Positions 3,948-19,417 of a stretch of 64,000 nucleotides of DNA are shown in pieces. The DNA lies in the NCBI GenBank assembly GCA_032128415.1, contig JAQBGW010000165.1, positions 1,481-65,480 of the forward strand, written 5' to 3'. Source of the DNA: Betaproteobacteria bacterium. GTDB taxonomy: Bacteria > Pseudomonadota > Gammaproteobacteria > Burkholderiales > SG8-41. How positions within the stretch are numbered: position 1 is the stretch's first letter; each line of letters starts with the position of its first letter. The notes beneath the pieces were generated by a model. It saw only the letters and a program-made list of their open reading frames with translations, was not told the origin of the DNA and ran no database searches. The translations under genes were made by a program, and so were the position numbers.

Positions 3948-4961
3948 TCAGCCGTTACGTGAACGCCCGGCCAGTTTGCGCAGTTCCTGATGCAGCACGT
4001 CAGAAATGACCAGGCCCTCGGCCTGCGCCTTCGCGGTCGCCTGTTGCCGCCGCACACCTGGCAAGCGCACCCCTTCATCGGCGAGCATATGGCGAATCAT
4101 GTCTTCGAGTCGTGCGTAATACACATCGGCGCCGGCCAGCGCGGAGGGATCAATCACGAGCACGGCATGGCCGATGCGCGGTTTGTTGCCGGGCTCGAAG
4201 TACGAATCATTCTCGCGGCTCAGCGCCGCACCGGTCAGCGCCACGCACAATGCTTCAACCATCAGTGCCAGTGCCGTGCCTTTGACGCCACCGATCGCGG
4301 TGAGGCTACCGGTCAGTGCGGCCTGCGCATCGGTCGTCGGATTGCCGTCGCGATCGACCGCCCAACCCAATGGAATTGATTTGCCTTCCTTGGCCATCAG
4401 CATGATCTTGCCGCGGGTCACTTCGGTCAGCGACAGATCGATGACCACAGGCGCGGCGTTTTTCCTCGGGAAAATCGCCGCCACCGGATTGGTCCCGAAA
4501 AAAGCTTTTTTGCCGCCCCAGGCATTGATCGCTGCCGGAGAGTTGGTGAACGCAAGCCCGACCATCCCTGCTTCGGCAACCGGTGCGAGATGATAGGCTG
4601 CTGCGCCGAAATGATGGCTGTTGGTGACACCAGAAAATGCAACGCCGTAGCGTTTGGCACGCTTGATCGCTTCATTGACCGCCAGCGCCGCCGCCGGAAA
4701 TGCCAGTCCGCCACCGGCGTCGATCAGGCAGGTCGCGCCGGCCTTTCTGATGATTTTCGGTTTGGCCTTGCCGTCGGCGCGGCCCTCGCGCAGATGTTGC
4801 GCGTACAGCGCCACGCGCGACAGACCGTGGCCAGCCAAGCCTTCGGCTTCGGCCACAACCAGCGCTTTCGCGGTGGCTGTCGCCATCGCTTTGGAGGCAC
4901 CCGCGCGCTTCAAGGCGCGTGTGGCGAGATCGGTCAGCGTCGCGGCAGCGAGGGTTGGCAT
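3948..4961 (-). CDS. Ldh_2 family (malate/L-lactate/(R)-sulfolactate dehydrogenase, ComC-like) oxidoreductase
   Basis: GHGLSR, NSHHFG, GTNP, GWAVDRDGNPTTD, GGVKG, RLPG motifs. Substrate is inferred from context only. Confidence 0.88.
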   Translation of the reverse strand: MPTLAAATLTDLATRALKRAGASKAMATATAKALVVAEAEGLAGHGLSRVALYAQHLREGRADGKAKPKIIRKAGATCLIDAGGGLAFPAAALAVNEAIKRAKRYGVAFSGVTNSHHFGAAAYHLAPVAEAGMVGLAFTNSPAAINAWGGKKAFFGTNPVAAIFPRKNAAPVVIDLSLTEVTRGKIMLMAKEGKSIPLGWAVDRDGNPTTDAQAALTGSLTAIGGVKGTALALMVEALCVALTGAALSRENDSYFEPGNKPRIGHAVLVIDPSALAGADVYYARLEDMIRHMLADEGVRLPGVRRQQATAKAQAEGLVISDVLHQELRKLAGRSRNG

Positions 4962-4972
4962 CGGTTAAAACC

Positions 4973-5965
4973 TCAGTCCAGACGCGTGTTCGACGCCTTG
5001 GCTACCTCGGCCCATTTGGCTGTTTCTACTTTGACGAATGCTGCAAATTCGGCGGTTGTATTTCCGCCCGGTTCGGCACCAGAGTCAATAATGCGCTTCG
5101 AAACCTCCGGAGACTTCACGGCAGCAACCCATGACTTATAAAGTGTTTCAATGACCGGGGCCGGTGTCTTGCTGGGTGCGAAAAGACCATTCCACTGTAC
5201 AGCCATATGCCCGGGAACACCGGCCTCAATCATGGTCGGGATATCCGGTGCCAAAGCCGAACGCTTGGGACCCGCCACACCAAGGCCACGCAGTTTGCCT
5301 GTCTTGAAATGACGTGCCGCAACCGGCAAAACAATAAATCCGGCCTGTGCCTCACCGGTCAGCACCGCGACAGTCTGTGGAGCCGCGCCTTTGTACGGCA
5401 AGTGGGTCATGCGTATGCCAGTCTTGAGCCGCAAAAGCTCCATGGCCAGTTGCCCCATTGTCCCCGCTCCGGATGATGCGTAATCCAGCGCATTCGGCTT
5501 CGACTTCGCAAGCGCAACGAATTGCTTGACCGTTTTAACCGGCAATGACGGATGAACGACCAGGGAAAATGGATACTGCGATGCCATCGAAATCGCAACC
5601 AGATCCTGACTGGGACTGTAGGTCAATTTACTGTAGACCGCCGGGCTGATCGCCAGGGATGAGTTGCCGAACAATACCGTGTAACCATCTGCGGGAGCCT
5701 TGGCAACGATATCTGCAGCGATGTTGCCACTGGCACCAGCGCGGTTATCGACGACAGCCCGCTGCCCCAGATCGGCGATAAATCTCTGCGCGATAATTCT
5801 GGCGATGGTGTCGCTGCCGCCGCCAGGCGGAAACGCCACGATCATGCGCACCGCACGAGTCGGAAAACTCTGCGCTGCGACATCACCCAGCGGGGCAAGT
5901 ACCGCGCCGCCCGCCAGCACCAAGATAATCAAAAGGCGAATGTCGCAGATGTCGAATCTCGTCAT
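4973..5965 (-). CDS. Tripartite tricarboxylate transporter substrate-binding protein (TctC/Bug)
   Basis: Signal peptide, FPPGGGSD, DNRAGASG, PADGYT, PYKG motifs; GGGGAGGA RBS before MTRFD. Confidence 0.93.
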   Translation of the reverse strand: MTRFDICDIRLLIILVLAGGAVLAPLGDVAAQSFPTRAVRMIVAFPPGGGSDTIARIIAQRFIADLGQRAVVDNRAGASGNIAADIVAKAPADGYTVLFGNSSLAISPAVYSKLTYSPSQDLVAISMASQYPFSLVVHPSLPVKTVKQFVALAKSKPNALDYASSGAGTMGQLAMELLRLKTGIRMTHLPYKGAAPQTVAVLTGEAQAGFIVLPVAARHFKTGKLRGLGVAGPKRSALAPDIPTMIEAGVPGHMAVQWNGLFAPSKTPAPVIETLYKSWVAAVKSPEVSKRIIDSGAEPGGNTTAEFAAFVKVETAKWAEVAKASNTRLD

Positions 5966-6059
5966 GATTCTCCTCCCCAGTTGTTTTCTAATTTGAAGAC
6001 CAGTGTCTCGCGCATGCCGGAAAAAATCAATCGCCATCCGACCGATACCGGCGCCGCAA

Positions 6060-7775
6060 TCAGGCAGGCGTCAACAGCGACTGGCCGGGCTTGACGCGGG
6101 TGAAATGCACCGGGCGATTTTCAATACCGAAGCGCCCGTCCCGCCAACTCACACAGGTGTAATGCGAGTTTTCCAGATCATGGACATCTGGAAAATCGGC
6201 ACGAAAATGCGCGCCGCGCGAATCTTCCCGTGCCATCGCTGCGAATCGAATCGATTGCGAAACCAGCACCAGATTCTTCAAATTCATCCAGTCATGCCAG
6301 GTCAGATTGTAGGCCAGCGTCGAACCATCCACGCCGGTTGCATCAAGCCGTGCGTCGAGTTCGTCGAGCAGTCCCGACGCACGATTAAGCGATGCCGCAT
6401 CGCGCACGATTCCGACATCGTCCCACATGACCGCGTAGAGTTGCTCGCGGATTGAATTGATGTCACCACCTTCGCGAGAGAGTGGTGCCCGGCAGCGCGC
6501 CACTGCGGCATCAATCGCCTCCTGATCGGGGGCACGGAACTCGCCGTTGGCCTTGACCCAGCCGGGCATCACGTCACCGGCAATGCCGCCAAACACCGTG
6601 GAATTGGCGACACCATTACCGCCCAACCGGTTCGCACCATGCACACCACCGGAATCCTCTCCCGCGACAAACAGACCGGGCAGATCAGTCGAGCAATCGG
6701 TTTTGAAAGCAACGCCACCCATCATGTAGTGCGCGGTCGGCACCACATCGACCAGCCCGCCGACCAGGTCAAAACCGCAGTCGGCGCAACGCTCGACCAT
6801 ACCCTTGAACTCGCGGCGCACCATGACCGGATCGAGATGACGCATGGTGATGTAGAGGCCGCCGTGTTTATTGACGCGACCGGCGCGCATTTCCTCGTAC
6901 ATGCCGCGGCTGACGATGTCACGTGTCGCGCGTTCGTTACGCGGGTCGTAGTGGTGCATGAAACGCTCGCCCGCGCCGTTGAGCAACTGTCCGCCGACGC
7001 CACGCAGACCTTCCTCGATGATGGTGCCGGTGATACGCGTGTCAGATCCTGCGATCAATCCGGTGGGATGAAACTGCACCATTTCCATGTCGCGCAGCAT
7101 GAGCCCACCGCGCAGCGCCATCGCCATGCCGTCGCAGCTCTTGTCGCCGGAGGGCGTGTGGTACTTGTACATGGTCGGCCCGCCACCGGTCGCGAGCAAC
7201 ACGGCCTGCGCCTGTACGAACACGAATTCGCCGTTGCGCATATCGATCATCACCACGCCGGAAATCGCATCGCCGGATTTACTTTTGATGAATTCAACGG
7301 CGCGGTGCTCTTCGAGCCGGTGGATGCCACGCGCCCAAACCTGTTCGGCAAGGCGGTTGATGATCTCGATGCCGGTCAGGTCACCCTTGTGCACGGTGCG
7401 ATCGAAAGTCTGTCCGGCGAAAGCTTTCTGATGAATGGTGCCGTCTGGATTGCGATCGAAAAAACAGCCCAGCTCGTTCTCGAGTTCGTGGATGCGCTCG
7501 ACCGCGGTTTCGACCAGCATCCAGGCGAGATCCTGATCGGGCAGCCACTTGCCACCCTCGATGGTGTCCATGAAATGGCGTTCTACAGAATCGCCCGCAG
7601 CCAACGCCACGTTATAACCGCCCTGCACCATGCGCGTGCAGCCGGTTTTTCCGAACAGTCCCTTAACCGCCACGGTGATCGACAATTCGGGATTGTGCTG
7701 ATGCGCGTGTAACGCGGCGAACAGCCCGGCGCCGCCGGATCCGAGGATCAGGATGTCGGTCTTGATGGTGTTCAT
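6060..7775 (-). CDS. Succinate dehydrogenase/fumarate reductase family flavoprotein subunit (non-canonical, lacks the covalent-FAD His)
   Basis: GSGGAG, QFHPT, RD, HYMMGG, HGANRLGGN, REDSRGAHFR; has KTGCTRMVQGG where SdhA has RSHTxxAQGG. Confidence 0.9.
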   Translation of the reverse strand: MNTIKTDILILGSGGAGLFAALHAHQHNPELSITVAVKGLFGKTGCTRMVQGGYNVALAAGDSVERHFMDTIEGGKWLPDQDLAWMLVETAVERIHELENELGCFFDRNPDGTIHQKAFAGQTFDRTVHKGDLTGIEIINRLAEQVWARGIHRLEEHRAVEFIKSKSGDAISGVVMIDMRNGEFVFVQAQAVLLATGGGPTMYKYHTPSGDKSCDGMAMALRGGLMLRDMEMVQFHPTGLIAGSDTRITGTIIEEGLRGVGGQLLNGAGERFMHHYDPRNERATRDIVSRGMYEEMRAGRVNKHGGLYITMRHLDPVMVRREFKGMVERCADCGFDLVGGLVDVVPTAHYMMGGVAFKTDCSTDLPGLFVAGEDSGGVHGANRLGGNGVANSTVFGGIAGDVMPGWVKANGEFRAPDQEAIDAAVARCRAPLSREGGDINSIREQLYAVMWDDVGIVRDAASLNRASGLLDELDARLDATGVDGSTLAYNLTWHDWMNLKNLVLVSQSIRFAAMAREDSRGAHFRADFPDVHDLENSHYTCVSWRDGRFGIENRPVHFTRVKPGQSLLTPA

Positions 7776-7781
7776 GAACGC

Positions 7782-8393
7782 TTAATTTTTGACGCCTAGA
7801 GCCGCCAGTACGCCCGCCCGCTTGTCCTTCGCCGCCGCATTGACCACCGTATAAAGACTGCCGCCGTGCGCATCCATCGCCACCAGCAACGGGCCGAAGC
7901 CCTTGATGCGGAACTTCCACAACGACTCGGGATTGAGGTCGTCGAGATCAACTTCTTCGATCTGCTCAATCCAGGTGGTCTCCAGCGCCGCGGTCCCGCC
8001 GATGATCGCGAGATAAACCCCGCCCAGTTCACTGAAGGCTTTCGCCGAGGCAGCGAACAATCCGCCCTTGCCGATGACTATGCGTACGCCGTACTGCTCC
8101 ATCAACGGCCGCGTGAAACGCTCCATGCGCGAGCTGGTCGTGGTGCCGACGCAAATCGGCGCGTAGCCCGACGGATGCTGCTGTGTCTCTCCCACCCATT
8201 TGACGTTGGGTGCGGTGTGTATGACAGCGTGGCCTTTCATATCGAAACGCGTCTTGCGGCCATGATCAAACATATGGATTTGCGTGGCATCGCGGATCCC
8301 GTAAAGCGTGTTGTGCAGCGTGACAGTGTCATTGATGCGCAGCTTGCGCACCTGCTCTTCGGTCACCGGCATCTGCAATTCATAATGGGCCAT
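7782..8393 (-). CDS. Class I fumarate hydratase/tartrate dehydratase family, beta subunit
   Basis: RDATQ, TTTSSRM, IGKGG, FGPLLVAMDAHGGSLY motifs. Confidence 0.9.
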   Translation of the reverse strand: MAHYELQMPVTEEQVRKLRINDTVTLHNTLYGIRDATQIHMFDHGRKTRFDMKGHAVIHTAPNVKWVGETQQHPSGYAPICVGTTTSSRMERFTRPLMEQYGVRIVIGKGGLFAASAKAFSELGGVYLAIIGGTAALETTWIEQIEEVDLDDLNPESLWKFRIKGFGPLLVAMDAHGGSLYTVVNAAAKDKRAGVLAALGVKN

Positions 8394-8408
8394 CTCTGTA
8401 TCCGCCGC

Positions 8409-9284
8409 TCAGTAGCCGTAGCTCAGGCCGGCGGGCGTGAACGTAGCCCGCGAGCGCCGCGCCGAGTGGCACTGCATGTTGACGGCGACTGGATTCATGG
8501 TGATGTGGGTCGCCGCGGTTTCGACGTGCACCGCAAATGCGGTCGAGTCGCCACCCAGTCCCTGCGCGCCGACGCCGAGTTGATTGACGACCTTGCTCAG
8601 TTCCGCTTCGAGTTTCGCGCCTTCGGGGTCCTCGCAGACACTGCCGAGCGGCCGCGTCGCCGCTACTTTCGACAAATGCACGCACAAATCTGCAGTGCCG
8701 CCGACACCGACGCCGACGATCACCGGGGGGCAGCTCTTGCCGCCGGCCTCCAGCACGCAATCGATGACAAAGGTCTTGATGGCAGCAATGCCCTCTGCAG
8801 GAATCGCCATTTTCAGCCAGGAGTTGTTCTCCGAGCCGGAACCTTTCGGAATCATTTCAATGGCCAGCGTGTCGGCCTCGGGCACGAAGTCGATGTTGAT
8901 CACGGGGACCTGCCGGCCGCAGGAAGTGTGTTCGTTCTTGCGGGTGGTCGGATGCACCACCGACGAGCGCAGCGGGTACTCTTTGGTTGCCCGCTCGCAA
9001 CCCTTGATGATGGCCTGCTTCAGTGCATAACCATCCATGACGACGTTATTGCCGATAGTGACGTTGTATATCGGGATGCCGGTATCCTGACACAGCAGGT
9101 TGCTGGTGTCTTCGGCCACGGTAATGTTGCGGATCATGGTGCCGAGAATGGCTTTGCCCGTAGCGTTGGTTTCGCCTTTATCCAGCCGCTGGAAGCCCTG
9201 CTTGATGTCGGGCGGCAGCATTTTCAGCGCACGGATGTAGAGTTCCTTGCACGCCTCTTCAATCTGTAGTGGATCGACCTTCAC
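8409..9284 (-). CDS. Class I fumarate hydratase/tartrate dehydratase family, alpha subunit (Fe-S)
   Basis: CQDTG, KGSGSEN, CPP, MQCHSAR motifs; GTG start. Confidence 0.92.
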   Translation of the reverse strand: MKVDPLQIEEACKELYIRALKMLPPDIKQGFQRLDKGETNATGKAILGTMIRNITVAEDTSNLLCQDTGIPIYNVTIGNNVVMDGYALKQAIIKGCERATKEYPLRSSVVHPTTRKNEHTSCGRQVPVINIDFVPEADTLAIEMIPKGSGSENNSWLKMAIPAEGIAAIKTFVIDCVLEAGGKSCPPVIVGVGVGGTADLCVHLSKVAATRPLGSVCEDPEGAKLEAELSKVVNQLGVGAQGLGGDSTAFAVHVETAATHITMNPVAVNMQCHSARRSRATFTPAGLSYGY

Positions 9285-9306
9285 TGCATTACCTTTTTTT
9301 TGCGTG

Positions 9307-9359
9307 AAAAATCCGGGATATCGCAGAGACGTTGCGCCTCTGCGACGGCACCGGGATTT
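9307..9359 (-). terminator. Hairpin with T-tract downstream of the tctC gene (terminator or mRNA stabiliser)
   Basis: Minus strand TCGCAGAGGCG-CAA-CGTCTCTGCGA stem, outer AAATCCCGG/CCGGATTT pairing, then TTTTT. Confidence 0.6.
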
Positions 9360-9363
9360 ATCG

Positions 9364-10326
9364 TTACCTCACCTGCAGCTTGCGTGCCACGATAATCTTC
9401 GCCCAGCGCCCGCTTTCTTCCTTGATCGCCTTGGCGAATTCCGCTGAATCGTTGCCGACCGGGACCATGCCCAGGTCGTTAAAACGCTTGATGATTGCCG
9501 AATCGCCCAACGCGGCAACCGTGTCTTTGTGGATTTTGGCGATCACTGCCTTCGGCGTTCCAGCAGGCACCATGAAACCAAACCAACCGAGATTCTCGAA
9601 ACCGGGCAGCGTTTCCGCAACCGCCGGCACATCGGGCAACTGCTTCGAGCGGTCCTTGCTCGTCACCGCCAATGCGCGCAATCTTCCGGATCTGACGAAA
9701 TTGATCGCCGCTGCAAGATTGGGTGTCACGAACTGGATTTGTCCGCCCAGAAGATCGCCGATAGCCGGCGCCTCACCCTTGTAGGGGATGTGCACCACGT
9801 CGATGCCCGCGGTGTATATGAAATTCTCACCAGCGAGATGGGTTTGTGTGCCGATGCCAGCCGAGCCGAAGGTCACGCCTTTTGACTTTGACTTGGCCAT
9901 GTCAATCAGATCTTTGACGGTCTTTGCCGAAAAACTCGGATTCACGACGATCGCCTGTGGTCCGCTGGCGACGTTGGTCACCGCAACAAGATCCTTCTCA
10001 GCGTTGTATGGCAGCTTCCGGTATATGTGCTGGTTGGCGGTGACGATGGAACCCGAAGTCATGAACAGGGTGTAACCGTCGGCCGGAGCTTTGGCCGAGA
10101 GATCAGCGCCGATGTTGCCGCCGGCACCTGCACGGTTATCAACCACTATGGTCTGCCCCCAGATCTGCGTCAGCTTCTGCGACACGACGCGCGTGACAAT
10201 GTCGGTCGCTCCGCCTGCCGAAAACGGCACGATGACGCGAACCGGCTTGGCTGGATAGCTCTGGGCCGCTGCTGAAATAGATACACATAACGCTCCCGCC
10301 ATCAAAATCAGTGCCGCTTGACGCAT
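9364..10326 (-). CDS. TctC/Bug substrate-binding protein
   Basis: Signal peptide, YPAKPVRVIVPFSAGGATD, DNRAGAGG, PYKG; CAGGAG RBS. Confidence 0.94.
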   Translation of the reverse strand: MRQAALILMAGALCVSISAAAQSYPAKPVRVIVPFSAGGATDIVTRVVSQKLTQIWGQTIVVDNRAGAGGNIGADLSAKAPADGYTLFMTSGSIVTANQHIYRKLPYNAEKDLVAVTNVASGPQAIVVNPSFSAKTVKDLIDMAKSKSKGVTFGSAGIGTQTHLAGENFIYTAGIDVVHIPYKGEAPAIGDLLGGQIQFVTPNLAAAINFVRSGRLRALAVTSKDRSKQLPDVPAVAETLPGFENLGWFGFMVPAGTPKAVIAKIHKDTVAALGDSAIIKRFNDLGMVPVGNDSAEFAKAIKEESGRWAKIIVARKLQVR

Positions 10327-10415
10327 GTTTTTTCTCCTGGGTTTAGTCATTGCATGCAAATTGTTAACTGATTCAAGATACTCCTTGCCTGTGGCGCTAG
10401 CAAGATTCCGGTGCA

Positions 10416-11837
10416 CTACAGCCCGAGTGCATCGGCTGTAAGTTTGCGCAGTTCTTTATTCATTTTTTCCCGCAGGGTCCGGTATGCCGGGCGCCGCGCG
10501 ACATTGACGAGTTCATAGGGATCCTTGTCGAGGTCATACAGCTCATCCAGTTCGCCGTTGCGCGCACGATTGACCCAGTGGATGTACTTGTAGCGGTCGG
10601 TGCGCACCGCCTTGTAAGTCATGTTGACCAGCCAGGGATAAGCGTTCTCGGCCCAGTATTCGATGAATATGGATTTACGCCATCCGGCGCGTTTACCCTT
10701 GATCAACGGCAGCACCGATCGGCCTTGAATATGCACGCCGGGCTTGCCGCCGGCGATTTCGATCAGCGTCGGCGCGAGATCCTGCAGAATCACCAGATCA
10801 CGGATACGCGATCCCGGCTTGATGGATTTCGGCCAACGGATGGTCAATGGCGAACGAATGCCTTCTTCGTAGGCAAAGCGCCGCTCCGGCCCGATGCCGT
10901 GTTCGCCGAAAAAATAACCATTGTCGCCGAGGAACAGAATCACCGTATTGTCGAGTTCACCCGTCTCCTCCAGCGTCTTGAGAATCATGCCGACACCTTC
11001 ATCCACCGCAGCCATCATCGCCGCGCGCAGACGGATTTCTTCCTGCTTGCCGGAATGGATGGCGTCGTGCATGACTCTGGATGCCTCGTTCTTGCGCAAC
11101 TCGACAGCTTCGGCCCACACCGGCTTGTGCTTGAGAAACTCTTTCGGTTGCTGCATGTTGGGTTTTTTCGGGAACACACAGCCCCGGTAGAGATTTTCAT
11201 GGCGTTTCGCCGGGCGATAACCATCCATTTTGAACGAGCCGTCAGCTGCCTGCTCGGCATCGGGATGCACCGCCTTGTGCGCAAACCACAGCGACCACGG
11301 CTTGTCGTGTTTGCGTCGGTCTTTGCTACTGAGCCAGTCCACCGCCATGGTGTTCATGATGTCGGTAACGTAGCCCTGATGCTGCACGTACCGGCCGTTT
11401 TCATTGAGCTTCGGGTTATAAAGATTGCCGTGACCGTCGTAAGCCACCCAGAAATCGTATCCGGGCCGTGGCTTGCCGTCGTTGCCCATGTGCCATTTGC
11501 CGATGTGTGCAGTCTCGTAACCGAGCTTCTGCAATTCGAGGTGGTAATTCGGCAGCCGATGACTCGCCAGATCACGGGCGACGTTGTCGATGATGCCGTG
11601 GCGACTGGCGTACTGGCCAGAAAGTATCGAAGCGCGATTGGGCGAGCAGATCGGCGTGGTATGAAACGCGCGCTCAAACAGCACGCCTTCGTGCGCGATA
11701 CGGTCGATATGCGGCGTCTTCATGTACGGATGGCCACCGGCACCGAACTCGTCGAAGCGCAGATCATCCACCAGGATCAGCAGCAGGTTCGGTTGCTTGC
11801 GTTTACTTGTTTTCACGAGCGCCCTCTTTATCGTCAT
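10416..11837 (-). CDS. Formylglycine-dependent (Cys-type) sulfatase
   Basis: PNLLLILVDD, CSPNR (CxPxR), GKWH, DNG, ELYDL..DPYE motifs; no hydrophobic signal peptide. Confidence 0.92.
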   Translation of the reverse strand: MTIKRALVKTSKRKQPNLLLILVDDLRFDEFGAGGHPYMKTPHIDRIAHEGVLFERAFHTTPICSPNRASILSGQYASRHGIIDNVARDLASHRLPNYHLELQKLGYETAHIGKWHMGNDGKPRPGYDFWVAYDGHGNLYNPKLNENGRYVQHQGYVTDIMNTMAVDWLSSKDRRKHDKPWSLWFAHKAVHPDAEQAADGSFKMDGYRPAKRHENLYRGCVFPKKPNMQQPKEFLKHKPVWAEAVELRKNEASRVMHDAIHSGKQEEIRLRAAMMAAVDEGVGMILKTLEETGELDNTVILFLGDNGYFFGEHGIGPERRFAYEEGIRSPLTIRWPKSIKPGSRIRDLVILQDLAPTLIEIAGGKPGVHIQGRSVLPLIKGKRAGWRKSIFIEYWAENAYPWLVNMTYKAVRTDRYKYIHWVNRARNGELDELYDLDKDPYELVNVARRPAYRTLREKMNKELRKLTADALGL

Positions 11838-11846
11838 GGTTACGCA

Positions 11847-12194
11847 TCACACCAGGTTGAGCAAAAACGACAACCCGGCAACCAGCGACACGCCTGCGGC
11901 TGCCGCGAGCAGTGTTTTCTGCCACTCACGCCATTCCAGAAATTCCAGCGCCAGCACACGCAAGCCACCCGCCATGTGCGCGGCGAGCAGCAGCACCAAT
12001 CCTGTTTCCGCGAATTTCACCAACGGCTGTTCGGTCCAGCGCAGGAAACCATCGAGCTTTGCTGCGCCGTGCAGGGCCTGGCCCAGCGCCCAGAAATGCA
12101 GCGGCAGGAACAGGGCGAGCAGCAGTCCGGACGCGCGATACACAATGAATGCCCAATACGCCGGGTGGTTGCGTGCGCGAATATCGTTTTTCAT
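11847..12194 (-). CDS. Succinate dehydrogenase-like cytochrome b membrane anchor (SdhC-like)
   Basis: Three TM helices, YRASG, LPLHF, AAHMAGGLR; ATGA overlap with the upstream anchor gene. Confidence 0.82.
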   Translation of the reverse strand: MKNDIRARNHPAYWAFIVYRASGLLLALFLPLHFWALGQALHGAAKLDGFLRWTEQPLVKFAETGLVLLLAAHMAGGLRVLALEFLEWREWQKTLLAAAAGVSLVAGLSFLLNLV

Positions 12195-12541
12195 GCGGCG
12201 CCTCCGCCGAACACTGCAATCACTGCGCGCATGCCCCACAGCAGCAGCAACAGTGCCACTGCGCCGGCCAACAAATCAAGTCCGCGACTGCGCCAGTTGC
12301 AGGTCTCGGCGAGTATGGTGCGCAGGCCGATCGGCGCGTGTACGGCGACGGCGACGACAAACAGCGTATAAAAAATCAGCCAGCCGTTATTGCCCTGCGT
12401 GCGGCCGAGTATCTCGGCGGCGCTGAGCCCGCTACGCACCGCATAGATCATGGTCACGAGGTGTACGGCCACACACAGCGCGAGTACTGCCGCACTCGCG
12501 CGTTGTGCGCCCCACAGCAGAACCTCGCTGCGGCGATTCAT
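12191..12541 (-). CDS. Succinate dehydrogenase-like membrane anchor (SdhD-like)
   Basis: Three TM helices, QRASA, AVH, AVHAPIGLRTI. Confidence 0.8.
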   Translation of the reverse strand: MNRRSEVLLWGAQRASAAVLALCVAVHLVTMIYAVRSGLSAAEILGRTQGNNGWLIFYTLFVVAVAVHAPIGLRTILAETCNWRSRGLDLLAGAVALLLLLWGMRAVIAVFGGGAA

Positions 12542-12587
12542 GGCACACCTGCCGAACTTAGATATAACCTGTTGATTTTATTCATTT

Positions 12588-13301
12588 TTATATTTCTCCT
12601 GCCAGCGTTGCAGCCAGCACTGCACGCTTCAGCCCGGCGATACCGGCGGTCGGCGACAATCCTTTGGGGCAACGTTCGGTGCAACTGATATGGGTATGAC
12701 AGGCATGACAACCGGCGTCGCCCGCTACCGCCGCCAGTCGTTCGGTGCGCGCGGTATCGCGCACGTCATTGATCAGCGTCCACGCACGGTTGAGCGCTGC
12801 GGGACCGAGATAATCCTTGTTCCAGGTAACCACGTCGCAGGCGCTGTAACAAACACCGCAACCGATGCACTCGATGCCGGCATCGACGCGCTTGCGCTGC
12901 TTCGACTCGGGCGAGACTTTGGCAAAAGCGTCTTTACGTGTAGTGCTGCCTTTAAAACTGCCGCGGGCACGCGCCCATTTGTCGAAAAATTCGCGCATGT
13001 CAGTGACCAGATCCTTGATCACCGGCAGATTGCGCAGCGGCGCGATTTCCACTTTGCCGTCTTTGGCGACTTTCGACACATGCGTGCGGCAGGTCCAGCG
13101 CGATACGCCGTTAACCGTCATTGCACACGACCCGCAAACACCCACGCGGCAGGCAAAACGGTAGGCGAGTGTTGAATCGCACTTGCGCTGCACGTAGGTC
13201 ACCACGTCGAGCACAGTCTGGCTTTCCTGCCGCGGCACCTCAAAATCCTGGAAGCCACCCTCCTCAGTGCCGCGCCAGATTCTGACTTGCAGGGTATCCA
13301 T
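12588..13301 (-). CDS. SDH/FRD iron-sulfur subunit
   Basis: CRVGVCGSC..C (2Fe-2S), CIGCGVCYSAC and CHTHISCTERCP cluster motifs. Confidence 0.93.
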   Translation of the reverse strand: MDTLQVRIWRGTEEGGFQDFEVPRQESQTVLDVVTYVQRKCDSTLAYRFACRVGVCGSCAMTVNGVSRWTCRTHVSKVAKDGKVEIAPLRNLPVIKDLVTDMREFFDKWARARGSFKGSTTRKDAFAKVSPESKQRKRVDAGIECIGCGVCYSACDVVTWNKDYLGPAALNRAWTLINDVRDTARTERLAAVAGDAGCHACHTHISCTERCPKGLSPTAGIAGLKRAVLAATLAGEI

Positions 13302-13311
13302 GGGCTGCCTT

Positions 13312-14964
13312 CTAATGTGTCGCAGCCGGCCCGCCGGCAGTGACCGTCGGCGCGGCCAGTCGCTGAATCATGACATTGACGCAGGCCGGTTTGCCGCTGG
13401 CCATCGCGCGCTGGATGGCCGGGCGTAATTCTCCGGCACAGGTCACCAGTTCGCCGTGACCGCCGAGTGCCGCCACCGCCAGGTCGTAACGCGTAGCCAG
13501 CAATTCGCAACCAAGTGCGCGCGCCTTGCCATAAGTCCGCAACTGAATCTGATGTTCGGCGTTCCAGCAGGCATCATTGCCGACAACAATGACAAAAGGC
13601 AGCTTCTCCCGCACCGCCGTATCGAACTCCATCAGGTGATATCCAAAACCGCCGTCACCCATCATGACAATCACCGGCGCCTGCGTACGCGCCATGCGCG
13701 CGGCCAATGCAAACGGCACGCCGCTACCGATGGAACCACCGGGGCCGTTGATGATACGCGTGGGTGCCGACACACAGGCCTGCCCCCACTGGGCAAACTC
13801 GCCGCCGTCGACAATGAATACCGCATCGGGCGACGCATTCAGCACTTCCTGTACCGCGCGACTCACTTCGACCGGGTGTGGTGGACCGGCATCGCCGGTA
13901 TTGATATCGCGCCAGTCCGCGGGCCGGAATGTCATTGCATCGACAACTTCCTTGAACCAGGCATCGCCGGACTTGCGCTGACCCGCCTTGATCAATGCAC
14001 TCACCGCAGCGACCGTATCCGCCTGCACCGACATCACCACGCGTGCTGCGCCCAGATTGGCGGTCGCCCGTTGCAGCACTTCGACGTCGGGATCGATAAC
14101 CGCAAAACGGCAATCCGCGGCAATCGCCGTTATCTGCCCGAAATGCAGTGAAAAATCAGGGCGCTTGCCGATCAGCACCACCAGATCCGCACGCGCCAGC
14201 ACGCCGGCAAAAGCACCGATGCTGGCATCCTTGGTGCCGCGCGGACTCTCCATGCATACAGCCGGCACACCAGTGGCGGCAGCGAGTTGCCTGACCTTTG
14301 CCGACACCGGCGCGTGCGACATCACCGGACCGAGCACAATCAGCGGTCGCACTGCGGATTTCAATAATGTCTGCAGCGCGGTAACGGATTTTGGATCCAG
14401 CGGATTTTCCACGGCGGCGAAATCAGCGGGCCGCGCCAGCCGATCAGCACCGTCGGTGACTTTCGCTTCCAGCACATCGAAGGGCAGGCTCAGATGTACG
14501 GGTCCGGGACGTCCGGAGCACGCAATGCGGCAGGCTTTGGCAATATCTGCGCCGAGTGACTCGGCGCTCGCCGCCGTCCACGAGGCCTTGACCACCGGCG
14601 CCGCAAGGTCAGCCTGGCGCATTTCCTGGAACGATCCGCGCCCCAACTCATTGAGTGGTGCATGTCCGGACAGCAGCACCATGGGGGAATCCGAGGCGAG
14701 CGCCGTGTATAGCGCACCAACGCCGTTGGCATGTCCGGGGCCGCCGGTGAGCAGTGCGATGCCGGGTTCGCCGGTCAGCCGCCCCCAGGCATCGGCCATA
14801 TGCACCGCCGCACCTTCATAGCGCACGTGGGTAATGGCAAGTTTGGCTTCGATGGCGGCGTCATAGACCGGCATGATGTGATTGCCGGACAGCGAAAAAA
14901 TTCGACGCAGCCCGGCTTGCGCCAGTGAGCGCGCAAGGATATCGGCGCCGCGGAGTGTGCTCAT
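13312..14964 (-). CDS. Thiamine diphosphate-dependent enzyme (acetolactate synthase-like superfamily)
   Basis: HVRYEGAAVHMADA catalytic Glu region, GRPGPV, GDG..(x24)..GND ThDP-binding motif. Confidence 0.9.
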   Translation of the reverse strand: MSTLRGADILARSLAQAGLRRIFSLSGNHIMPVYDAAIEAKLAITHVRYEGAAVHMADAWGRLTGEPGIALLTGGPGHANGVGALYTALASDSPMVLLSGHAPLNELGRGSFQEMRQADLAAPVVKASWTAASAESLGADIAKACRIACSGRPGPVHLSLPFDVLEAKVTDGADRLARPADFAAVENPLDPKSVTALQTLLKSAVRPLIVLGPVMSHAPVSAKVRQLAAATGVPAVCMESPRGTKDASIGAFAGVLARADLVVLIGKRPDFSLHFGQITAIAADCRFAVIDPDVEVLQRATANLGAARVVMSVQADTVAAVSALIKAGQRKSGDAWFKEVVDAMTFRPADWRDINTGDAGPPHPVEVSRAVQEVLNASPDAVFIVDGGEFAQWGQACVSAPTRIINGPGGSIGSGVPFALAARMARTQAPVIVMMGDGGFGYHLMEFDTAVREKLPFVIVVGNDACWNAEHQIQLRTYGKARALGCELLATRYDLAVAALGGHGELVTCAGELRPAIQRAMASGKPACVNVMIQRLAAPTVTAGGPAATH

Positions 14965-15080
14965 CGGTGGGCGTTGCTATTTCACAAAATACTTCAAAAA
15001 ATCAGAAATCACGGAATCCTGCGGACGGCCGCTGCGCAAAATATGGCGCCACGGCCGCGGGCAGACTGTCTGCGATCGGC

Positions 15081-16250
15081 TTACGCGCTTTCGTACAGGC
15101 GCGTCATCACAAATTCATTGTGGCCCAGCGCCTCGGCAGCGGTCAGACGGCCGTTGCAGGTGCGCAGCATCACTTCGACCAATTCATCGCCGGTCTGGTC
15201 GAGATTCTTCTCCCGCTGCAGCAAGCCGGAGCAATCGTAATCGACATGCTCCGACATCGTGCGCACGGTGCGCGGATTGGCCGTGAGCTTGATCACCGGA
15301 ATAATCGGATTGCCGATGACGTTGCCCTGGCCGGTCGGAAACAGATGCACCACATAACCGGAGGCCGCACACAGCGTGACCATTTCCGCCGCAGCCGAGG
15401 ATGAATCCATAAACCACAGTCCCGGCTTGGTTGGCTCTTCGGCCTTGTCGAGCACACCGATAACTTTGCACTTTTTGCCGATTTTCGCGATGTTGCCCAG
15501 CGCTTTTTCCTCGATCGTGGTCAGGCCGCCGGCGATATTGCCCTTGGTCGGCTGCGAATCGGACAGGTCGCTGGTCTTGTGGCGTTCGATGATTGCCTGG
15601 TAGCGGTCGAACATTTTCATGAACTGCTCCCGCACTTCAGGCGTCGCGCAGCGGTCGGCCACGATATTCTCGCCGCCGGTAATCTCAGTGGTCTCGCCGA
15701 AGCACATGGTGACCCCAAGCGGCTCGAGTTTGTCGAATGCGCTGCCGACGGTGGGATTGGAGCCGCAGCCGGAAGTGGTGTCAGATTCGCCGCACTTGGT
15801 CGAAACCCACAGGTCGCTGATCGGACATTGCTCGCGCTGCAGCTCGGAGGCCCACTGCACGTATTCCTTGGCGACTTTGGAGGCGCGCAGGATGGTGTCA
15901 TGGTCACCGTGCATCTCGATACCGAAGCCGGTGACCGGCTTGCCGGTCTTGGCAATACCATCGACAACTTTCTTGGCCCATCCTTCTTCGATGCAGATCA
16001 CCACCACGGCGGCGACATTCGGATTGGCACCCGCGCCGATCAGCGTACGGAAATGCAGATCCAGGTCGGCGCCAAACTGCAGCCGGCCATAGGGATGCGG
16101 AATCGCGATTGCGCCTTTGACGTTGTTGGCAACCGCTTCGGCAGCGGCGTTCGACAGATCGTCGACCGGCAAAATGACGACATGGTTGCGGACGCCGACG
16201 CGGCCATTCTCGCGGCGATAGCCGGAGAAAGTGGTTTTACTGTTGATCAT
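15081..16250 (-). CDS. suyB: UxaA-family hydro-lyase, likely (R)-sulfolactate sulfo-lyase beta subunit
   Basis: [53 protein letters not shown] match the SuyB subtype; follows a separate SAF gene. Confidence 0.8.
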
Positions 16251-16319
16251 TTTTAACCTCGTTAATTGTGTACGGGGAAGCGGATGAACGGGAGGATGCA
16301 GTTCGGAAACAACTGTGAC

Positions 16320-16601
16320 CTACCAGCGCTTGGTCTTGATATTGTGGACATGAGCGTGCTCGCCCACTTTGATGTCGGCTACCGCCTTGCCGATATCGAA
16401 ACCGTATTTGATGATGGTGTCGCCCTTCTTGATTTCACGGAGCGCCGCCTTGTGGCCGATGGGAATGTCGTTGAGGGCCTTGACCTTGATCGTGGAGTCG
16501 TCTTCCATCACCCAGCCGACCATTTCCTGTCCGGATTTGATGCCTTCGATGACAGCTACGCCGACCGTGTCTTTTTTGTCGTGTACCAACAGGTGAATCA
16601 T
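16320..16601 (-). CDS. suyA: SAF-domain protein, likely sulfolactate sulfo-lyase alpha subunit
   Basis: 93 aa, DTVGVA, DIPIGHKAAL, IKYG, GEHAHVHNIKTKRW; AGGAGG RBS. Confidence 0.8.
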   Translation of the reverse strand: MIHLLVHDKKDTVGVAVIEGIKSGQEMVGWVMEDDSTIKVKALNDIPIGHKAALREIKKGDTIIKYGFDIGKAVADIKVGEHAHVHNIKTKRW

Positions 16602-16670
16602 TTTGCCTCCTGGATGAATACCGCAACTGTGAATATAAGAGATGCAAAAACCAGCACTGCAGAGCCGGTG

Positions 16671-16717
16671 ATGCTAACCCCGGCACTTCCGACAAGTCAA
16701 CTATATGACCTATATGA
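16671..16717 (-). promoter_or_regulatory. Candidate sigma70 promoter of the suyA operon with adjacent CTATATGA direct repeat (putative GntR operator)
   Basis: Minus strand TTGACT (16700-16695), 18-nt spacer, TAGCAT (16676-16671); CTATATGA at 16701-16708 and 16710-16717. Confidence 0.5.
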
Positions 16718-16749
16718 ATCAGCCCCGGCGTGCTAGACTGCCGCACACC

Positions 16750-17526
16750 ATGATAGCCGCTCCCCATCCCGTTGCTGACAACCTGGCCGGAAACAATCTG
16801 ACCTCTGCTCCGCTCTACCGCGAGGTGCATTGGCGCATCACGCGGGCACTCGCTGAGGGCAAATGGAAACCGGGCGAAGCCATCCCCAGTGAATCGCGGT
16901 TAGCGGCGGATTTCAGCGTATCGATCGGCACCATCCGCCGCGCCATCGACGAGCTGGTCGCCGGACGCATCCTCGTACGCCAGCAGGGCCGCGGCACCTT
17001 CGTTGCCACACATACCGAAGACCGCACGCTGTTCTACTTTTTTCATATTGTCGGCAAGGATGGCGGTCGCGTGTTTCCGGTTTCTGAACTGCTGTCGTTC
17101 CGCAGAGAACGCGCCGATGCCGGCGACGAAGCCCAATTGAGCGTGGCGCGCGGCAGTCGGGTGGCGCGGGTACGCAATCTGCTCAAACTCGCCGACAAGC
17201 CGGTGGTGCTCGACGACATCACCGTTTCGACCGAGCGCTTCAAGCGCATCGACGAAGACACTTTCCGCAACCGTGAAGGTACGATTTACGGGCTTTATCA
17301 GGCGCGCTACGGCGTCAACGTGGTGCGTATCAACGAACGATTGTCGGCAGCACATCCGCCTGCGGATATCGCCGCAATACTCGGCATGCGTGCCAATCAG
17401 CCGGCACTGCATATTCGCCGCATCGCCTACACCTATAACGATTCACCGGTGGAACACCGGTTGAGCTGGATCAACTCAGCCGATCACGAGTATCTCAGTG
17501 ATCTGTGGAAAACCGCAGCGCAATAA
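16750..17526 (+). CDS. GntR/HutC-family transcriptional regulator with UTRA domain
   Basis: PLY..WKPGEAIPSE..VSIGTIRRAIDEL..GRGTFV wHTH plus UTRA C-terminus; divergent from suyA. Start could be 16705, 16714 or 16750. Confidence 0.92.
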   Translation: MIAAPHPVADNLAGNNLTSAPLYREVHWRITRALAEGKWKPGEAIPSESRLAADFSVSIGTIRRAIDELVAGRILVRQQGRGTFVATHTEDRTLFYFFHIVGKDGGRVFPVSELLSFRRERADAGDEAQLSVARGSRVARVRNLLKLADKPVVLDDITVSTERFKRIDEDTFRNREGTIYGLYQARYGVNVVRINERLSAAHPPADIAAILGMRANQPALHIRRIAYTYNDSPVEHRLSWINSADHEYLSDLWKTAAQ

Positions 17527-17565: not shown

Positions 17566-19338
17566 CTAACGACCGAGTTCGCGGCGCGCAATGGCAATCT
17601 GCGCCGGATCCTTTGCATACTGCAGCAACCACTCGAACTGCACCCGCGCATCGGCACGCAGCCCGGCGCGCGCGAGTGCCAGCCCGGCGCGCAGCCGCGC
17701 ATCGGCTGCAGCGGCATCAGGCGTCGCGGCGCGCAGTGCCGAGCGCAGATGAAAATCCGCCGCGAGCAGCGACTCGTTGCGCGCCTCGTGCAAGCGGCCC
17801 ATGCCGGACAGCACTGCCCGTGCCAGCAATGGTTCGGCGTGCGGCAATACGCGTTCCAGCAACAGGCGTGCGCTGTCATGCTGGCCGTAATCGGCGTACT
17901 GCTGTGCGAGTACAGTCCAGGCCTGCGCCTGAATGCTGGTCATCGGTAATTTGTCAGCGCTCAGCCGACGGGCAATATCGTTGGCCATGTCAGCGCGGTC
18001 GGCGCGCAATGCCAGTGCCGCAAGGCGCATGCTCCATTCATCCACGGTGACGCCCGCGGGTACGGGTAGACCGCGCCAGTAATCCAGCGCCCGCGCCAGC
18101 TCCCCGGCCGCTACAGCGAGTTCACCCAGCGCATACCGTGCAGTCTCCCCGGGCGGCGCCAATCCAGCGGGCGCCGCGACTACCAGTCGCAGCCCTGCGC
18201 GCGGCAGTCGTGCGGCGGAAAATCCTGCAACGAGTTGCGCCAGCGCGCCTTCGCGTATCGGAGCTGCTCGCGCGCTGCGCGCGAGGTAGGCAAAATAGGC
18301 GCGCGCAAGCACCGGTTCCGCTACTCGCCGGCGCTGCGCAAATTCAAACCAGTCGGAGTCATCGCCGGCAAGCAGATGATGCGTATTGGCGGATTCGCGC
18401 GCGAGGGTGTCGTAAGCGTCCCACACTTGCGTAGCCGTTACTGTTAGTGCCTGCGGTGCTGACGCGTCGAGCAAATGTTCCAGCGCTTCGATGCCGAGCA
18501 CCGCAGACGGTTGACGCTGAGCCGCATCGAAAATTACGCGCCACCAACCTGTATCCGCAGCGCGGGATAGCGCAGCACGGGCCTGCACCACGGCTTCTTG
18601 CGGTTTGATCAGACCCGTAAGCAGGCGCAGGCGGAGCTTCACCGGGTGGCCGTCTTCCAGCAGTCCCAGCCAATCCACAGCTTCCTTGACGCGATCCAGA
18701 TCCAGCAAGGTATCGACAAATTCCTCCACAATCGCGGCAGTCAGCGGCTGGTAGTCCTGCTGGAAACGCAGCATGCTGCCGTAGGCCTCAAGTGAGCGGG
18801 ATTCGCGGGCATAGCTGCGGATGACCAGCAGCCGCAGATCGCGGATCTGGGCGCCCCGAAGGAAGTCCCCTTGGGGGACGCCCCGAAGGAAGTCCTCTTG
18901 TGGGGCGGAACTGACGCCCGGCGCCCACAGCGCCCGGGCAGCATATTCCCGCGCTGCGGCACCTTGCCCCATGGCCAGAGCCGACTGCGCGGCGAGCGCG
19001 TGCAGGTCAGTGCGCGCATCCGCCGGCAAATTCACCGGAAACACGGCAGCGCGTCTCAGCACTTCATCGTGGCGGTTGCTGCGGGCGAGCAGCTGCAGGC
19101 GCAGCCGCTCCCACTCCACCCAGGGCGCCCCGGAGGAAGTCCCCTTGGGGGGCGCCCCGGCAGTATCGCCGGGCTGCAGCTCATCCATGCGGTGCAGTGC
19201 AAGTTGCGTAGCACCCGCATGCATCAGCGCGCGGATTGCATCCAGACCATCGGGTGCGTCCGCTGCCATAGTTGCAGACGTTGCGTGCATGCTCAGGCAT
19301 GCCAGCATCCCGATGCGGATGTATTGCAAGCTGGTCAT
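17566..19338 (-). CDS. Exported alpha-helical (TPR-like) hypothetical protein
   Basis: Long ORF with signal-peptide-like N-terminus and Ala/Leu/Arg helical repeats; TACAAT lies 6 nt before the ATG at 19338. Confidence 0.65.
   Translation of the reverse strand: MTSLQYIRIGMLACLSMHATSATMAADAPDGLDAIRALMHAGATQLALHRMDELQPGDTAGAPPKGTSSGAPWVEWERLRLQLLARSNRHDEVLRRAAVFPVNLPADARTDLHALAAQSALAMGQGAAAREYAARALWAPGVSSAPQEDFLRGVPQGDFLRGAQIRDLRLLVIRSYARESRSLEAYGSMLRFQQDYQPLTAAIVEEFVDTLLDLDRVKEAVDWLGLLEDGHPVKLRLRLLTGLIKPQEAVVQARAALSRAADTGWWRVIFDAAQRQPSAVLGIEALEHLLDASAPQALTVTATQVWDAYDTLARESANTHHLLAGDDSDWFEFAQRRRVAEPVLARAYFAYLARSARAAPIREGALAQLVAGFSAARLPRAGLRLVVAAPAGLAPPGETARYALGELAVAAGELARALDYWRGLPVPAGVTVDEWSMRLAALALRADRADMANDIARRLSADKLPMTSIQAQAWTVLAQQYADYGQHDSARLLLERVLPHAEPLLARAVLSGMGRLHEARNESLLAADFHLRSALRAATPDAAAADARLRAGLALARAGLRADARVQFEWLLQYAKDPAQIAIARRELGR
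18852..18905. repeat. Two tandem copies of a 27-bp palindromic element inside the CDS
   Basis: CGCCCCGAAGGAAGTCCCCTTGGGGGA then CGCCCCGAAGGAAGTCCTCTTGTGGGG; encode PQEDFLRGV-PQGDFLRGA. Confidence 0.9.
19124..19158. repeat. Third copy of the 27-bp element, bounded by GGCGCCCC direct repeats
   Basis: GGCGCCCC-GGAGGAAGTCCCCTTGGGG-GGCGCCCC; read in another frame (GAPPKGTSSGAP). Confidence 0.88.
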
Positions 19339-19417
19339 GTGGTTATTGTAGCGGTGCCGCGTGTGCCGCGTGTGCTGCGGTGGTTGTGGGCACCCGGTCG
19401 AAAAAAGAGATCGCAAT

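Follow-up and report, generated by a model that had tools for sequence, protein, structure and literature searches.

A candidate operon for 3-sulfopropanoate breakdown that combines complex II and fumarase paralogues with sulfolactate sulfo-lyase genes

The 64,000-nucleotide stretch of contig JAQBGW010000165.1 analyzed here (the window; assembly GCA_032128415.1, a Betaproteobacteria bacterium) carries an operon that, judged from its gene content, almost certainly encodes a sulfonate pathway and that probably mineralizes 3-sulfopropanoate via sulfoacrylate and (R)-sulfolactate to pyruvate and sulfite. A membrane-bound complex II paralogue would oxidize 3-sulfopropanoate to sulfoacrylate and deliver the electrons through a four-histidine anchor to an acceptor that we take to be quinone; a paralogue of iron-sulfur (Fe-S) fumarases would hydrate sulfoacrylate to sulfolactate, presumably the (R)-enantiomer, and SuyAB would cleave (R)-sulfolactate to pyruvate and sulfite. 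We infer the substrate and the oxidative direction from gene content, linkage, active-site residues and the identity of SuyAB, all of which were observed directly. The original prediction had proposed the same conversions as an uncharacterized route; linkage and SuyAB identity support the route itself, but it had been proposed before, in a thesis cited in PMC11489063. The genes of the predicted core route are:

16320..16601, minus strand: SuyA, sulfolactate sulfo-lyase small subunit (62% identical to the small UxaA-family protein of the Cupriavidus pinatubonensis hps cluster)
15081..16250, minus strand: SuyB, sulfolactate sulfo-lyase large subunit (81% identical to the large subunit of the same hps cluster)
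12588..13301, minus strand: SdhB-like Fe-S subunit with 12 invariant Cys (profile match and alignment)
12191..12541, minus strand: SdhD-like anchor with two invariant His, 27 and 68 (profile matches and alignment)
11847..12194, minus strand: SdhC-like anchor, invariant at two His (48 and 88, counted along the longest open reading frame (ORF), which starts at 12239)
8409..9284, minus strand: class I Fe-S hydratase alpha subunit (type I), predicted sulfoacrylate hydratase (profiles and motifs)
7782..8393, minus strand: class I Fe-S hydratase beta subunit (type I; profiles and motifs)
6060..7775, minus strand: SdhA/FrdA-like flavoprotein, predicted 3-sulfopropanoate dehydrogenase (profiles and alignment)

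SuyA and SuyB (93 and 389 amino acids) are separate small and large subunits of the UxaA/GarD superfamily, in which SuyAB is, as far as the accessible text of PMC6336799 goes, the sole heteromeric one among four characterized members. The listed identities refer to the pair in the 2,3-dihydroxypropane-1-sulfonate (DHPS) cluster of strain HN-2, the gene order of which agrees with hpsRNOUP-suyAB (accessible part of PMC11382572). SuyB falls far below the cut-off of the single-chain GarD model (155.8 versus 730.85 bits), and an assignment of the UxaA pair to altronate/galactarate dehydratases, considered as a way to overturn the original prediction, is not borne out by these values. Fe(II)-dependent cleavage of (R)-sulfolactate to pyruvate and sulfite by the window's SuyAB is a likely prediction. 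The C. pinatubonensis system (PMC11382572, in the part available) reaches the same pyruvate and sulfite end point but funnels DHPS via HpsNOP, whereas the window would use the complex II paralogue and the Fe-S hydratase.

As the accessible part of PMC5773532 describes it, H232, T244, R287, H355 and R390 of E. coli FrdA contact the substrate, and H44 is the ligand of flavin adenine dinucleotide (FAD). At FrdA positions 44, 46, 49 and 244 the window's flavoprotein has Cys, Arg, Gln and Glu. The motifs of H232, R287, H355 and R390 are retained in all 110 aligned flavoproteins of the clade, and in all 110 T244 is replaced by Glu, so that the dicarboxylate site of Sdh/Frd enzymes is kept at four residues and exchanged at the fifth. 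One substrate pocket apparently remodelled and the other intact is what is expected for an asymmetric succinate analogue. The histidine that covalently links FAD in Sdh/Frd is lacking, with Cys at this position in the window and in 102 of the 110 sequences (the four commonest motif variants), 6 of the 110 ending short there; two distant members have Ser at position 44 and retain the Arg and the Glu. As judged from these residues, the window would likely encode a natural complex II able to function with no histidyl-FAD bond. The flavoprotein missed the cut-offs of TIGR01812 (436.8 versus 567.3) and TIGR01816 (339.8 versus 727.35), its best NCBIfam match being the fumarate reductase TfrA at 498.5 bits, under the cut-off of 718. 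The Fe-S subunit passed TIGR00384 (200.8 versus 88), and its 12 invariant cysteines together with the four invariant anchor histidines fit a three-cluster subunit and a heme-binding anchor; the latter would be of the diheme type, going by the complex II types as generally known. Its last Fe-S motif includes an extra invariant Cys198 (CxxCHxxxxCxxxC). With E. coli SdhCDAB/FrdABCD the window shares the flavoprotein, the Fe-S subunit, two anchors and H232, R287, H355 and R390, but differs in sequence (about 33% identity), in the exchanges His44 to Cys, Val46 to Arg and Thr244 to Glu, in the four anchor histidines, in its dispersed gene order and in missing the SdhA/FrdA cut-offs. A flavoprotein tree intended to split type I from type II loci (defined below by their hydratases) did not separate them and had low support, and we treat the flavoproteins as one clade. 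Sequence searches of the PDB returned no solved close relative of the flavoprotein, hydratase, thiamine diphosphate (ThDP) or Ldh_2 proteins.

The window hydratase keeps the three Fe-S cysteines and the catalytic Asp and Thr motifs of class I enzymes, the roles of these residues presumably being those of the Leishmania enzyme. The alpha subunit passes the fumarate hydratase model NF004885 (301, cut-off 276), the beta subunit misses the cut-offs of all eight models, and L-tartrate dehydratase is not indicated (TtdA 180.6 versus 365; TtdB 133.7 versus 264). Fumarase motifs are retained, with GTTT in place of GPTT. In common with TtdAB and the two-subunit class I fumarate hydratase of Methanocaldococcus jannaschii (7XKY), the window's enzyme has the three Cys, CQDTG, KGxGSEN, RD, TTSxRM and GKGG; it differs from both by GPTT to GTTT, HAGP to HTAP and its tie to SuyAB. 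Among type I hydratases, CQDTG is kept in 69 of 70, and TTTSxRM is the common beta motif. The geometry of fumarase leads to L-malate, and by the Cahn-Ingold-Prelog rules the corresponding sulfonate analogue would be (R)-sulfolactate, so that the substrate of SuyAB would be made directly and a ComC step would be dispensable. As side observations, a PF16036 chalcone-isomerase-like gene lies between the hydratase alpha and beta genes at nine loci (L026, L027, L029, L048, L054, L057, L069, L090, L092), and at L052 both hydratase types stand in tandem behind one flavoprotein.

A capped GTDB scan (600 loci scored, about 4800 estimated) retained 80 related loci, and the named relatives nearest to this genome in it are Burkholderiales metagenome-assembled genomes; locus content was counted in the 37 of at least 19 kb. 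These contain SdhB (36), hydratase alpha (36, of which 34 are of the window's type), SuyB (24), Ldh_2 (30, 28 at 45% or more), the ThDP enzyme (16, 15 at 49% or more) and the sulfatase (10). In an even sample of 251 Burkholderiales genomes (the order sample), the flavoprotein occurred in 39 and SuyB, always single-copy and 76-96% like the window's, in 45; all 39 flavoprotein genomes carry SuyB and the hydratase, 206 genomes have neither flavoprotein nor SuyB, and both of these genes fall into the same 12 of 58 families. The two genes lie within 20 kb of each other in 27 of the 39, far apart on one contig in 2 and on different contigs in 10. The predicted linkage to suyAB is conserved within the order but breaks outside it: among 281 alphaproteobacterial genomes, 24 have the flavoprotein, 27 a close SuyB and only 12 both. 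Those without close SuyB have a different hydratase wherever one was read.

The recurrent neighbors at the fetched loci belong to sulfonate metabolism and include TauE, SsuA/TauC-type ABC, SlcC-like, ComDE-like, HpsNOP, SoxC, YeiH and pyruvate carboxylase genes. Plasmids of Methylobacterium, Paracoccus, Rhodococcus and two haloarchaea hold the module together with SuyAB; in Rhodococcus and the haloarchaea an ArgH/XcbC-like lyase replaces the hydratase at loci where the link to SuyAB still holds. On the haloarchaeal plasmids (L085:12275-16413 and L161:7203-11456), flavoprotein, Fe-S, ArgH/XcbC-like lyase, TauE and SuyAB-like genes occur without a class I hydratase or annotated anchors, and the lyase is, by its position, likely a non-orthologous hydratase. 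In Halomonas (L067:11813-13963), genes for TauE and an XcbD/PcaB-like lyase follow the module. Further named flavoprotein members come from Bacillota, Nitrospirota and Acidobacteriota. ESM Atlas gave generic names only, Thermodesulfobacteriota being commonest in two clusters, and no Bilophila name appeared among 120 listed matches or 20 looked-up clusters, which does not establish its absence.

Two hydratase types, 31-37% identical to each other, accompany flavoproteins of this clade. Type II has CAD or CGD in place of CQD, an extra Arg and the beta motif TATASFRF, and lacks Gln134 and Thr468. For the comparison, 80 further type II loci were added and only loci of at least 10 kb were counted (64 type I, 55 type II). 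SuyB is present in 41 of 64 type I versus 1 of 55 type II loci (33/54 versus 1/38 after 90% de-duplication), and MmsA, the CoA-acylating methylmalonate-semialdehyde dehydrogenase, in 0 of 64 versus 7 of 55 (0/54 versus 3/38). In Pseudomonas sp. MPC6 the start of MmsA overlaps the stop of the type II block, with TauE, YeiH and sulfite oxidase nearby; the idea that type II enzymes form malonate semialdehyde and sulfite had been framed before this locus was seen. The type II block and the dehydrogenase occur in three arrangements (L162:8560-14899, L166, L168, L169, L172, L174, L175), and 10 of 55 type II loci have an Amidohydro_2 gene behind the block. We tentatively consider a wider scheme, on balance rather doubtful, in which a single complex II clade lacking the FAD histidine would oxidize 3-sulfopropanoate across bacteria and haloarchaea, type I hydratases would feed SuyAB, and type II enzymes would take up sulfoacrylate in flipped orientation and hydrate the sulfonate-bearing carbon, giving sulfite and malonate semialdehyde. 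Such C-S cleavage by hydration is not among the known sulfo-lyases. With sulfite-handling neighbors in 8 of 38 de-duplicated type II loci, direct desulfonation is a lead at which the data hint. If it holds, both exits would be C3 compounds, pyruvate (through SuyAB, two type I loci also having pyruvate carboxylase) and malonate semialdehyde (with MmsA in MPC6), which would favor 3-sulfopropanoate over sulfosuccinate.

Several observations weigh against 3-sulfopropanoate oxidation as the function of the operon. The missing FAD histidine (Cys, or Ser in the two distant members) appears as the main hole in the oxidative role and favors reduction: the covalent linkage raises the flavin potential (PMC5773532, accessible part), and in its absence 3-sulfopropanoate oxidation may be uphill. 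The added Arg and Gln might raise the potential of the flavin. An H44C mutant of FrdA is said to lose succinate oxidation. Half of the alphaproteobacterial carriers are without close SuyB, and five of them have no match to the SuyB, Xsc or CuyA families (genome completeness not stated). A type II hydratase adjoins the flavoprotein in 4 of these 5, UxaA-family genes occur in 4 of the 5 (mostly fused-length frames, one of 405 amino acids), and one of the 5 lacks an MmsA match. For type II loci, sulfite-handling neighbors and MmsA, at 8 and 3 of 38, are in the minority. Related genomes are not independent, so that our genome counts overstate conservation. Genes that could feed the pathway (omega-aminotransferase, aldehyde or 4-hydroxybutyrate dehydrogenase) are each found next to no more than 1-2 of the 64 type I loci, and the core route has no step for the ThDP enzyme or the sulfatase. 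The possible feeders seen at L043, L047, L061 and L163 comprise an omega-aminotransferase among hps genes, aldehyde dehydrogenases and a 4-hydroxybutyrate dehydrogenase, and 3-hydroxypropanesulfonate is an isostere of the latter's substrate.

A module running in reverse, with the hydratase dehydrating sulfolactate and the flavoprotein passing electrons from quinol to sulfoacrylate or fumarate as a sink alongside SuyAB, would account for the missing FAD histidine, the four-histidine anchors and TfrA as best, though sub-cut-off, NCBIfam match. TfrAB is the thiol:fumarate reductase of methanogens, a soluble enzyme that uses coenzyme M and coenzyme B, whereas the window encodes membrane anchors; TfrA presumably lacks the FAD histidine as well. 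We regard reversal as unlikely: FrdA position 49 is Gln, as in the genome's own SdhA motif, while the genome's FrdA has Glu; the partners of type II hydratases mostly have no sulfolactate genes nearby; and some carriers, Polynucleobacter and Methylobacterium for instance, are aerobes.

Another sulfur-bearing succinate analogue, for example 3-sulfinopropanoate or a substituted propanesulfonate, has only a small chance of being the substrate. A 3-sulfinopropanoyl-CoA desulfinase gene near one type II locus, aconitase X genes beside 5 of 119 loci and the rarity of 3-sulfopropanoate feeders would be in line with it, but in a sulfinate route sulfite is lost after formation of the keto acid and SuyAB is not needed, while SuyB is found in 39 of 39 flavoprotein genomes. 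Aconitase X genes, often with DUF3604, adjoin the module at L007, L009, L136, L141, L165, L198 and L228, possibly for a cis/trans or second hydration step.

For sulfosuccinate, a C4 compound that would be converted to sulfofumarate, hydrated and relieved of sulfite via SuyAB or after ComC-linked decarboxylation, the prospects are slimmer still. The invariant extra Arg and the changed Thr244 could serve a third anionic group, and a ComC-like gene is present in 37 of the 39 genomes; yet two genomes hold the module without a ComC-like match, SuyB remains single-copy and closely similar throughout the order sample, and a C4 route to oxaloacetate explains neither pyruvate carboxylase (3 loci) nor MmsA (7 loci). 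That spare tricarboxylic acid cycle or tartrate genes merely adjoin a sulfolactate operon by chance is very improbable. The alpha subunit does pass the fumarate hydratase model, and no other two-subunit class I hydratase turned up in the genome; yet the genes are intermingled with suyAB behind a single operator-like site, the TtdA/TtdB cut-offs are missed, most of the order sample lacks both genes, and canonical Sdh, Frd-like and FumC enzymes are encoded elsewhere.

The genome, listed as 100% complete, indeed has SdhCDAB on contig C43 and class II FumC on C37, as the original prediction had asked to be confirmed, and also a Frd-like set on C17 and C177; the window's Sdh-like proteins are about 33% identical to these canonical counterparts. 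A true Xsc (contig C5), a SoeABC-like sulfite oxidation set and TauE also lie elsewhere in the genome.

Oxidation of 3-sulfopropanoate through sulfoacrylate has precedent as chemistry. In its accessible text, PMC11489063 describes 3-sulfopropanoate degradation by bacteria as unreported except for a route through sulfoacrylate and sulfolactate that a thesis (J. Mayer, Konstanz) put forward for Roseovarius nubinhibens ISM, a homotaurine route with the same proposed chemistry; that text gives no gene names, and the thesis may propose some. Likewise, XcbC and XcbD, members of the fumarase superfamily, make and use sulfoacrylate in the bacterial coenzyme M pathway and treat it as a fumarate analogue (PMC9457059, accessible part), but this pathway is biosynthetic, is built on the aspartase/fumarase fold, adds cysteine and has no dehydrogenase. 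Breakdown of 3-sulfopropanoate in Bilophila was still unclear according to the available text of a January 2026 review (PMC12890257). We found no paper assigning genes to the 3-sulfopropanoate route in the literature searched, which leaves most subscription journals, the thesis and supplements outside. A recent paper on homotaurine catabolism reportedly may name such genes, in which case the pathway would already be known. The cluster names enzymes that can be assayed for breakdown of a compound that sulfoquinovose and DHPS fermenters as well as homotaurine users excrete, and it probably allows aquatic bacteria to burn this succinate look-alike released by other microbes. It is common, with carriers making up 39 of the 251 Burkholderiales genomes sampled, 24 of the 281 from Alphaproteobacteria and 39 of the 45 Burkholderiales with SuyB. 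If our reading is correct, 3-sulfopropanoate would be a larger currency of the sulfur cycle than assumed, and many genes now labelled L-aspartate oxidase, fumarate reductase or fumarate hydratase would be misnamed.

The remaining features of the locus are:

13312..14964, minus strand: single-chain ThDP enzyme from the HACL/benzaldehyde-lyase neighborhood (below the Xsc and HACL cut-offs)
10416..11837, minus strand: sulfatase-family hydrolase with CxPxR motif, accessory (profile match and alignment)
9364..10326, minus strand: TctC/Bug receptor, likely substrate binding for uptake (profile match)
4973..5965, minus strand: second TctC/Bug receptor (profile match)
3948..4961, minus strand: Ldh_2-family dehydrogenase, ComC-like by context (profiles and context)
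16705..17526, plus strand: GntR/HutC-type (UTRA) regulator, divergent (profile matches)
16696..16718, no strand: conserved operator-like tandem repeat, unique top site in the genome

The Ldh_2 protein scores 211 with its best model (NF040650, cut-off 500), has 1WTJ as best PDB match and is 42-44% identical to Ldh proteins encoded next to SlcC-like genes in Paracoccus and Methylobacterium. ComC-like genes track SuyAB, being found in 42 of 45 SuyB genomes of the order sample and in 5 of the 6 with SuyB only. The family assignment of the ComC-like dehydrogenase in the original prediction stands, but with no match in 2 of 39 flavoprotein genomes the core route does not need it, and it probably connects sulfolactate with sulfopyruvate in a side branch. 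From the SlcC/ComC racemase system the window genome differs in having no close SlcC (best match 39%). A sub-cut-off ComDE-like pair at C125:35080-37787 precedes an aldehyde dehydrogenase gene; elsewhere such pairs, likewise sub-cut-off, follow the flavoprotein gene (L005, L008, L048, L049, L057, L069, L092; once without a ComC-like match). A ComA-like gene, under the archaeal cut-off, lies inside the catabolic operon at L012, L013, L022 and L032.

The ThDP enzyme is not an Xsc (160.8, cut-off 620) and scores 270 with the HACL model (cut-off 600), the operon having no CoA ligase gene. Its conserved Glu470 aligns with the Glu mutated in 7PT2. It occurs in 25 genomes of the order sample, 23 of them flavoprotein carriers, in both type I and type II loci, and its gene once adjoins SuyAB, SlcC and ComC without the dehydrogenase. 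Most likely it is a 2-oxo-sulfonate decarboxylase, acting with about even odds on sulfopyruvate or on an upstream feeder, both being weak candidates. As a plain stand-in for ComDE it is poorly placed, 9 of 25 carriers having no Xsc match and type II loci that lack ComC containing it too; as a feeder decarboxylase it is weakened by the 2 of 25 carriers without the flavoprotein. The sulfatase (9 of 64 type I loci, confined to close kin) is accessory, and two FGE-family genes are present in the genome.

The layout foreseen from the sequence, 13 co-oriented genes running from 16601 down to 3948 and a divergent GntR gene, reappears in the ORF list, and profile searches recovered every predicted family (a GD_AH pair, the ThDP enzyme, SdhB, two Sdh_cyt, the sulfatase, two TctC, Fumerase, Fumerase_C, FAD_binding_2 with Succ_DH_flav_C, and Ldh_2). 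Listed operon ORFs are separated by -49 to 116 bp, and recQ starts 55 bp past the final gene. Ribosome-binding sites and overlaps suggest likelier starts at 12194 (SdhC-like, forming an ATGA overlap with the SdhD-like stop) and at 10326 and 5965 (TctC). The 23-bp operator-like site overlaps a -35-like box of the operon and contains the first ATG of gntR, the true start of which may lie downstream. It scores 41, the next-best site in the genome 20, and the genome scan found no second regulon member. The pattern matches 17 fetched loci and none of the base-shuffled loci (3.19 Mb), a control that shows only non-triviality, as the pattern was derived from the matched sites themselves. The promoter scan gave 4 sites versus 5.3 expected, and the -35-like box counts through its conservation only.

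Beyond the operon, a 616-amino-acid ORF convergent with gntR (17566-19416) has no Pfam or NCBIfam match. At the other end, positions 29-1655 of the window and C165:663-1295 just outside it contain CmcJ/NvfI-family, TauD-family oxygenase and LldD-like FMN dehydrogenase genes, the synteny of which is kept in close kin; the LldD-like enzyme might be SlcD-like.

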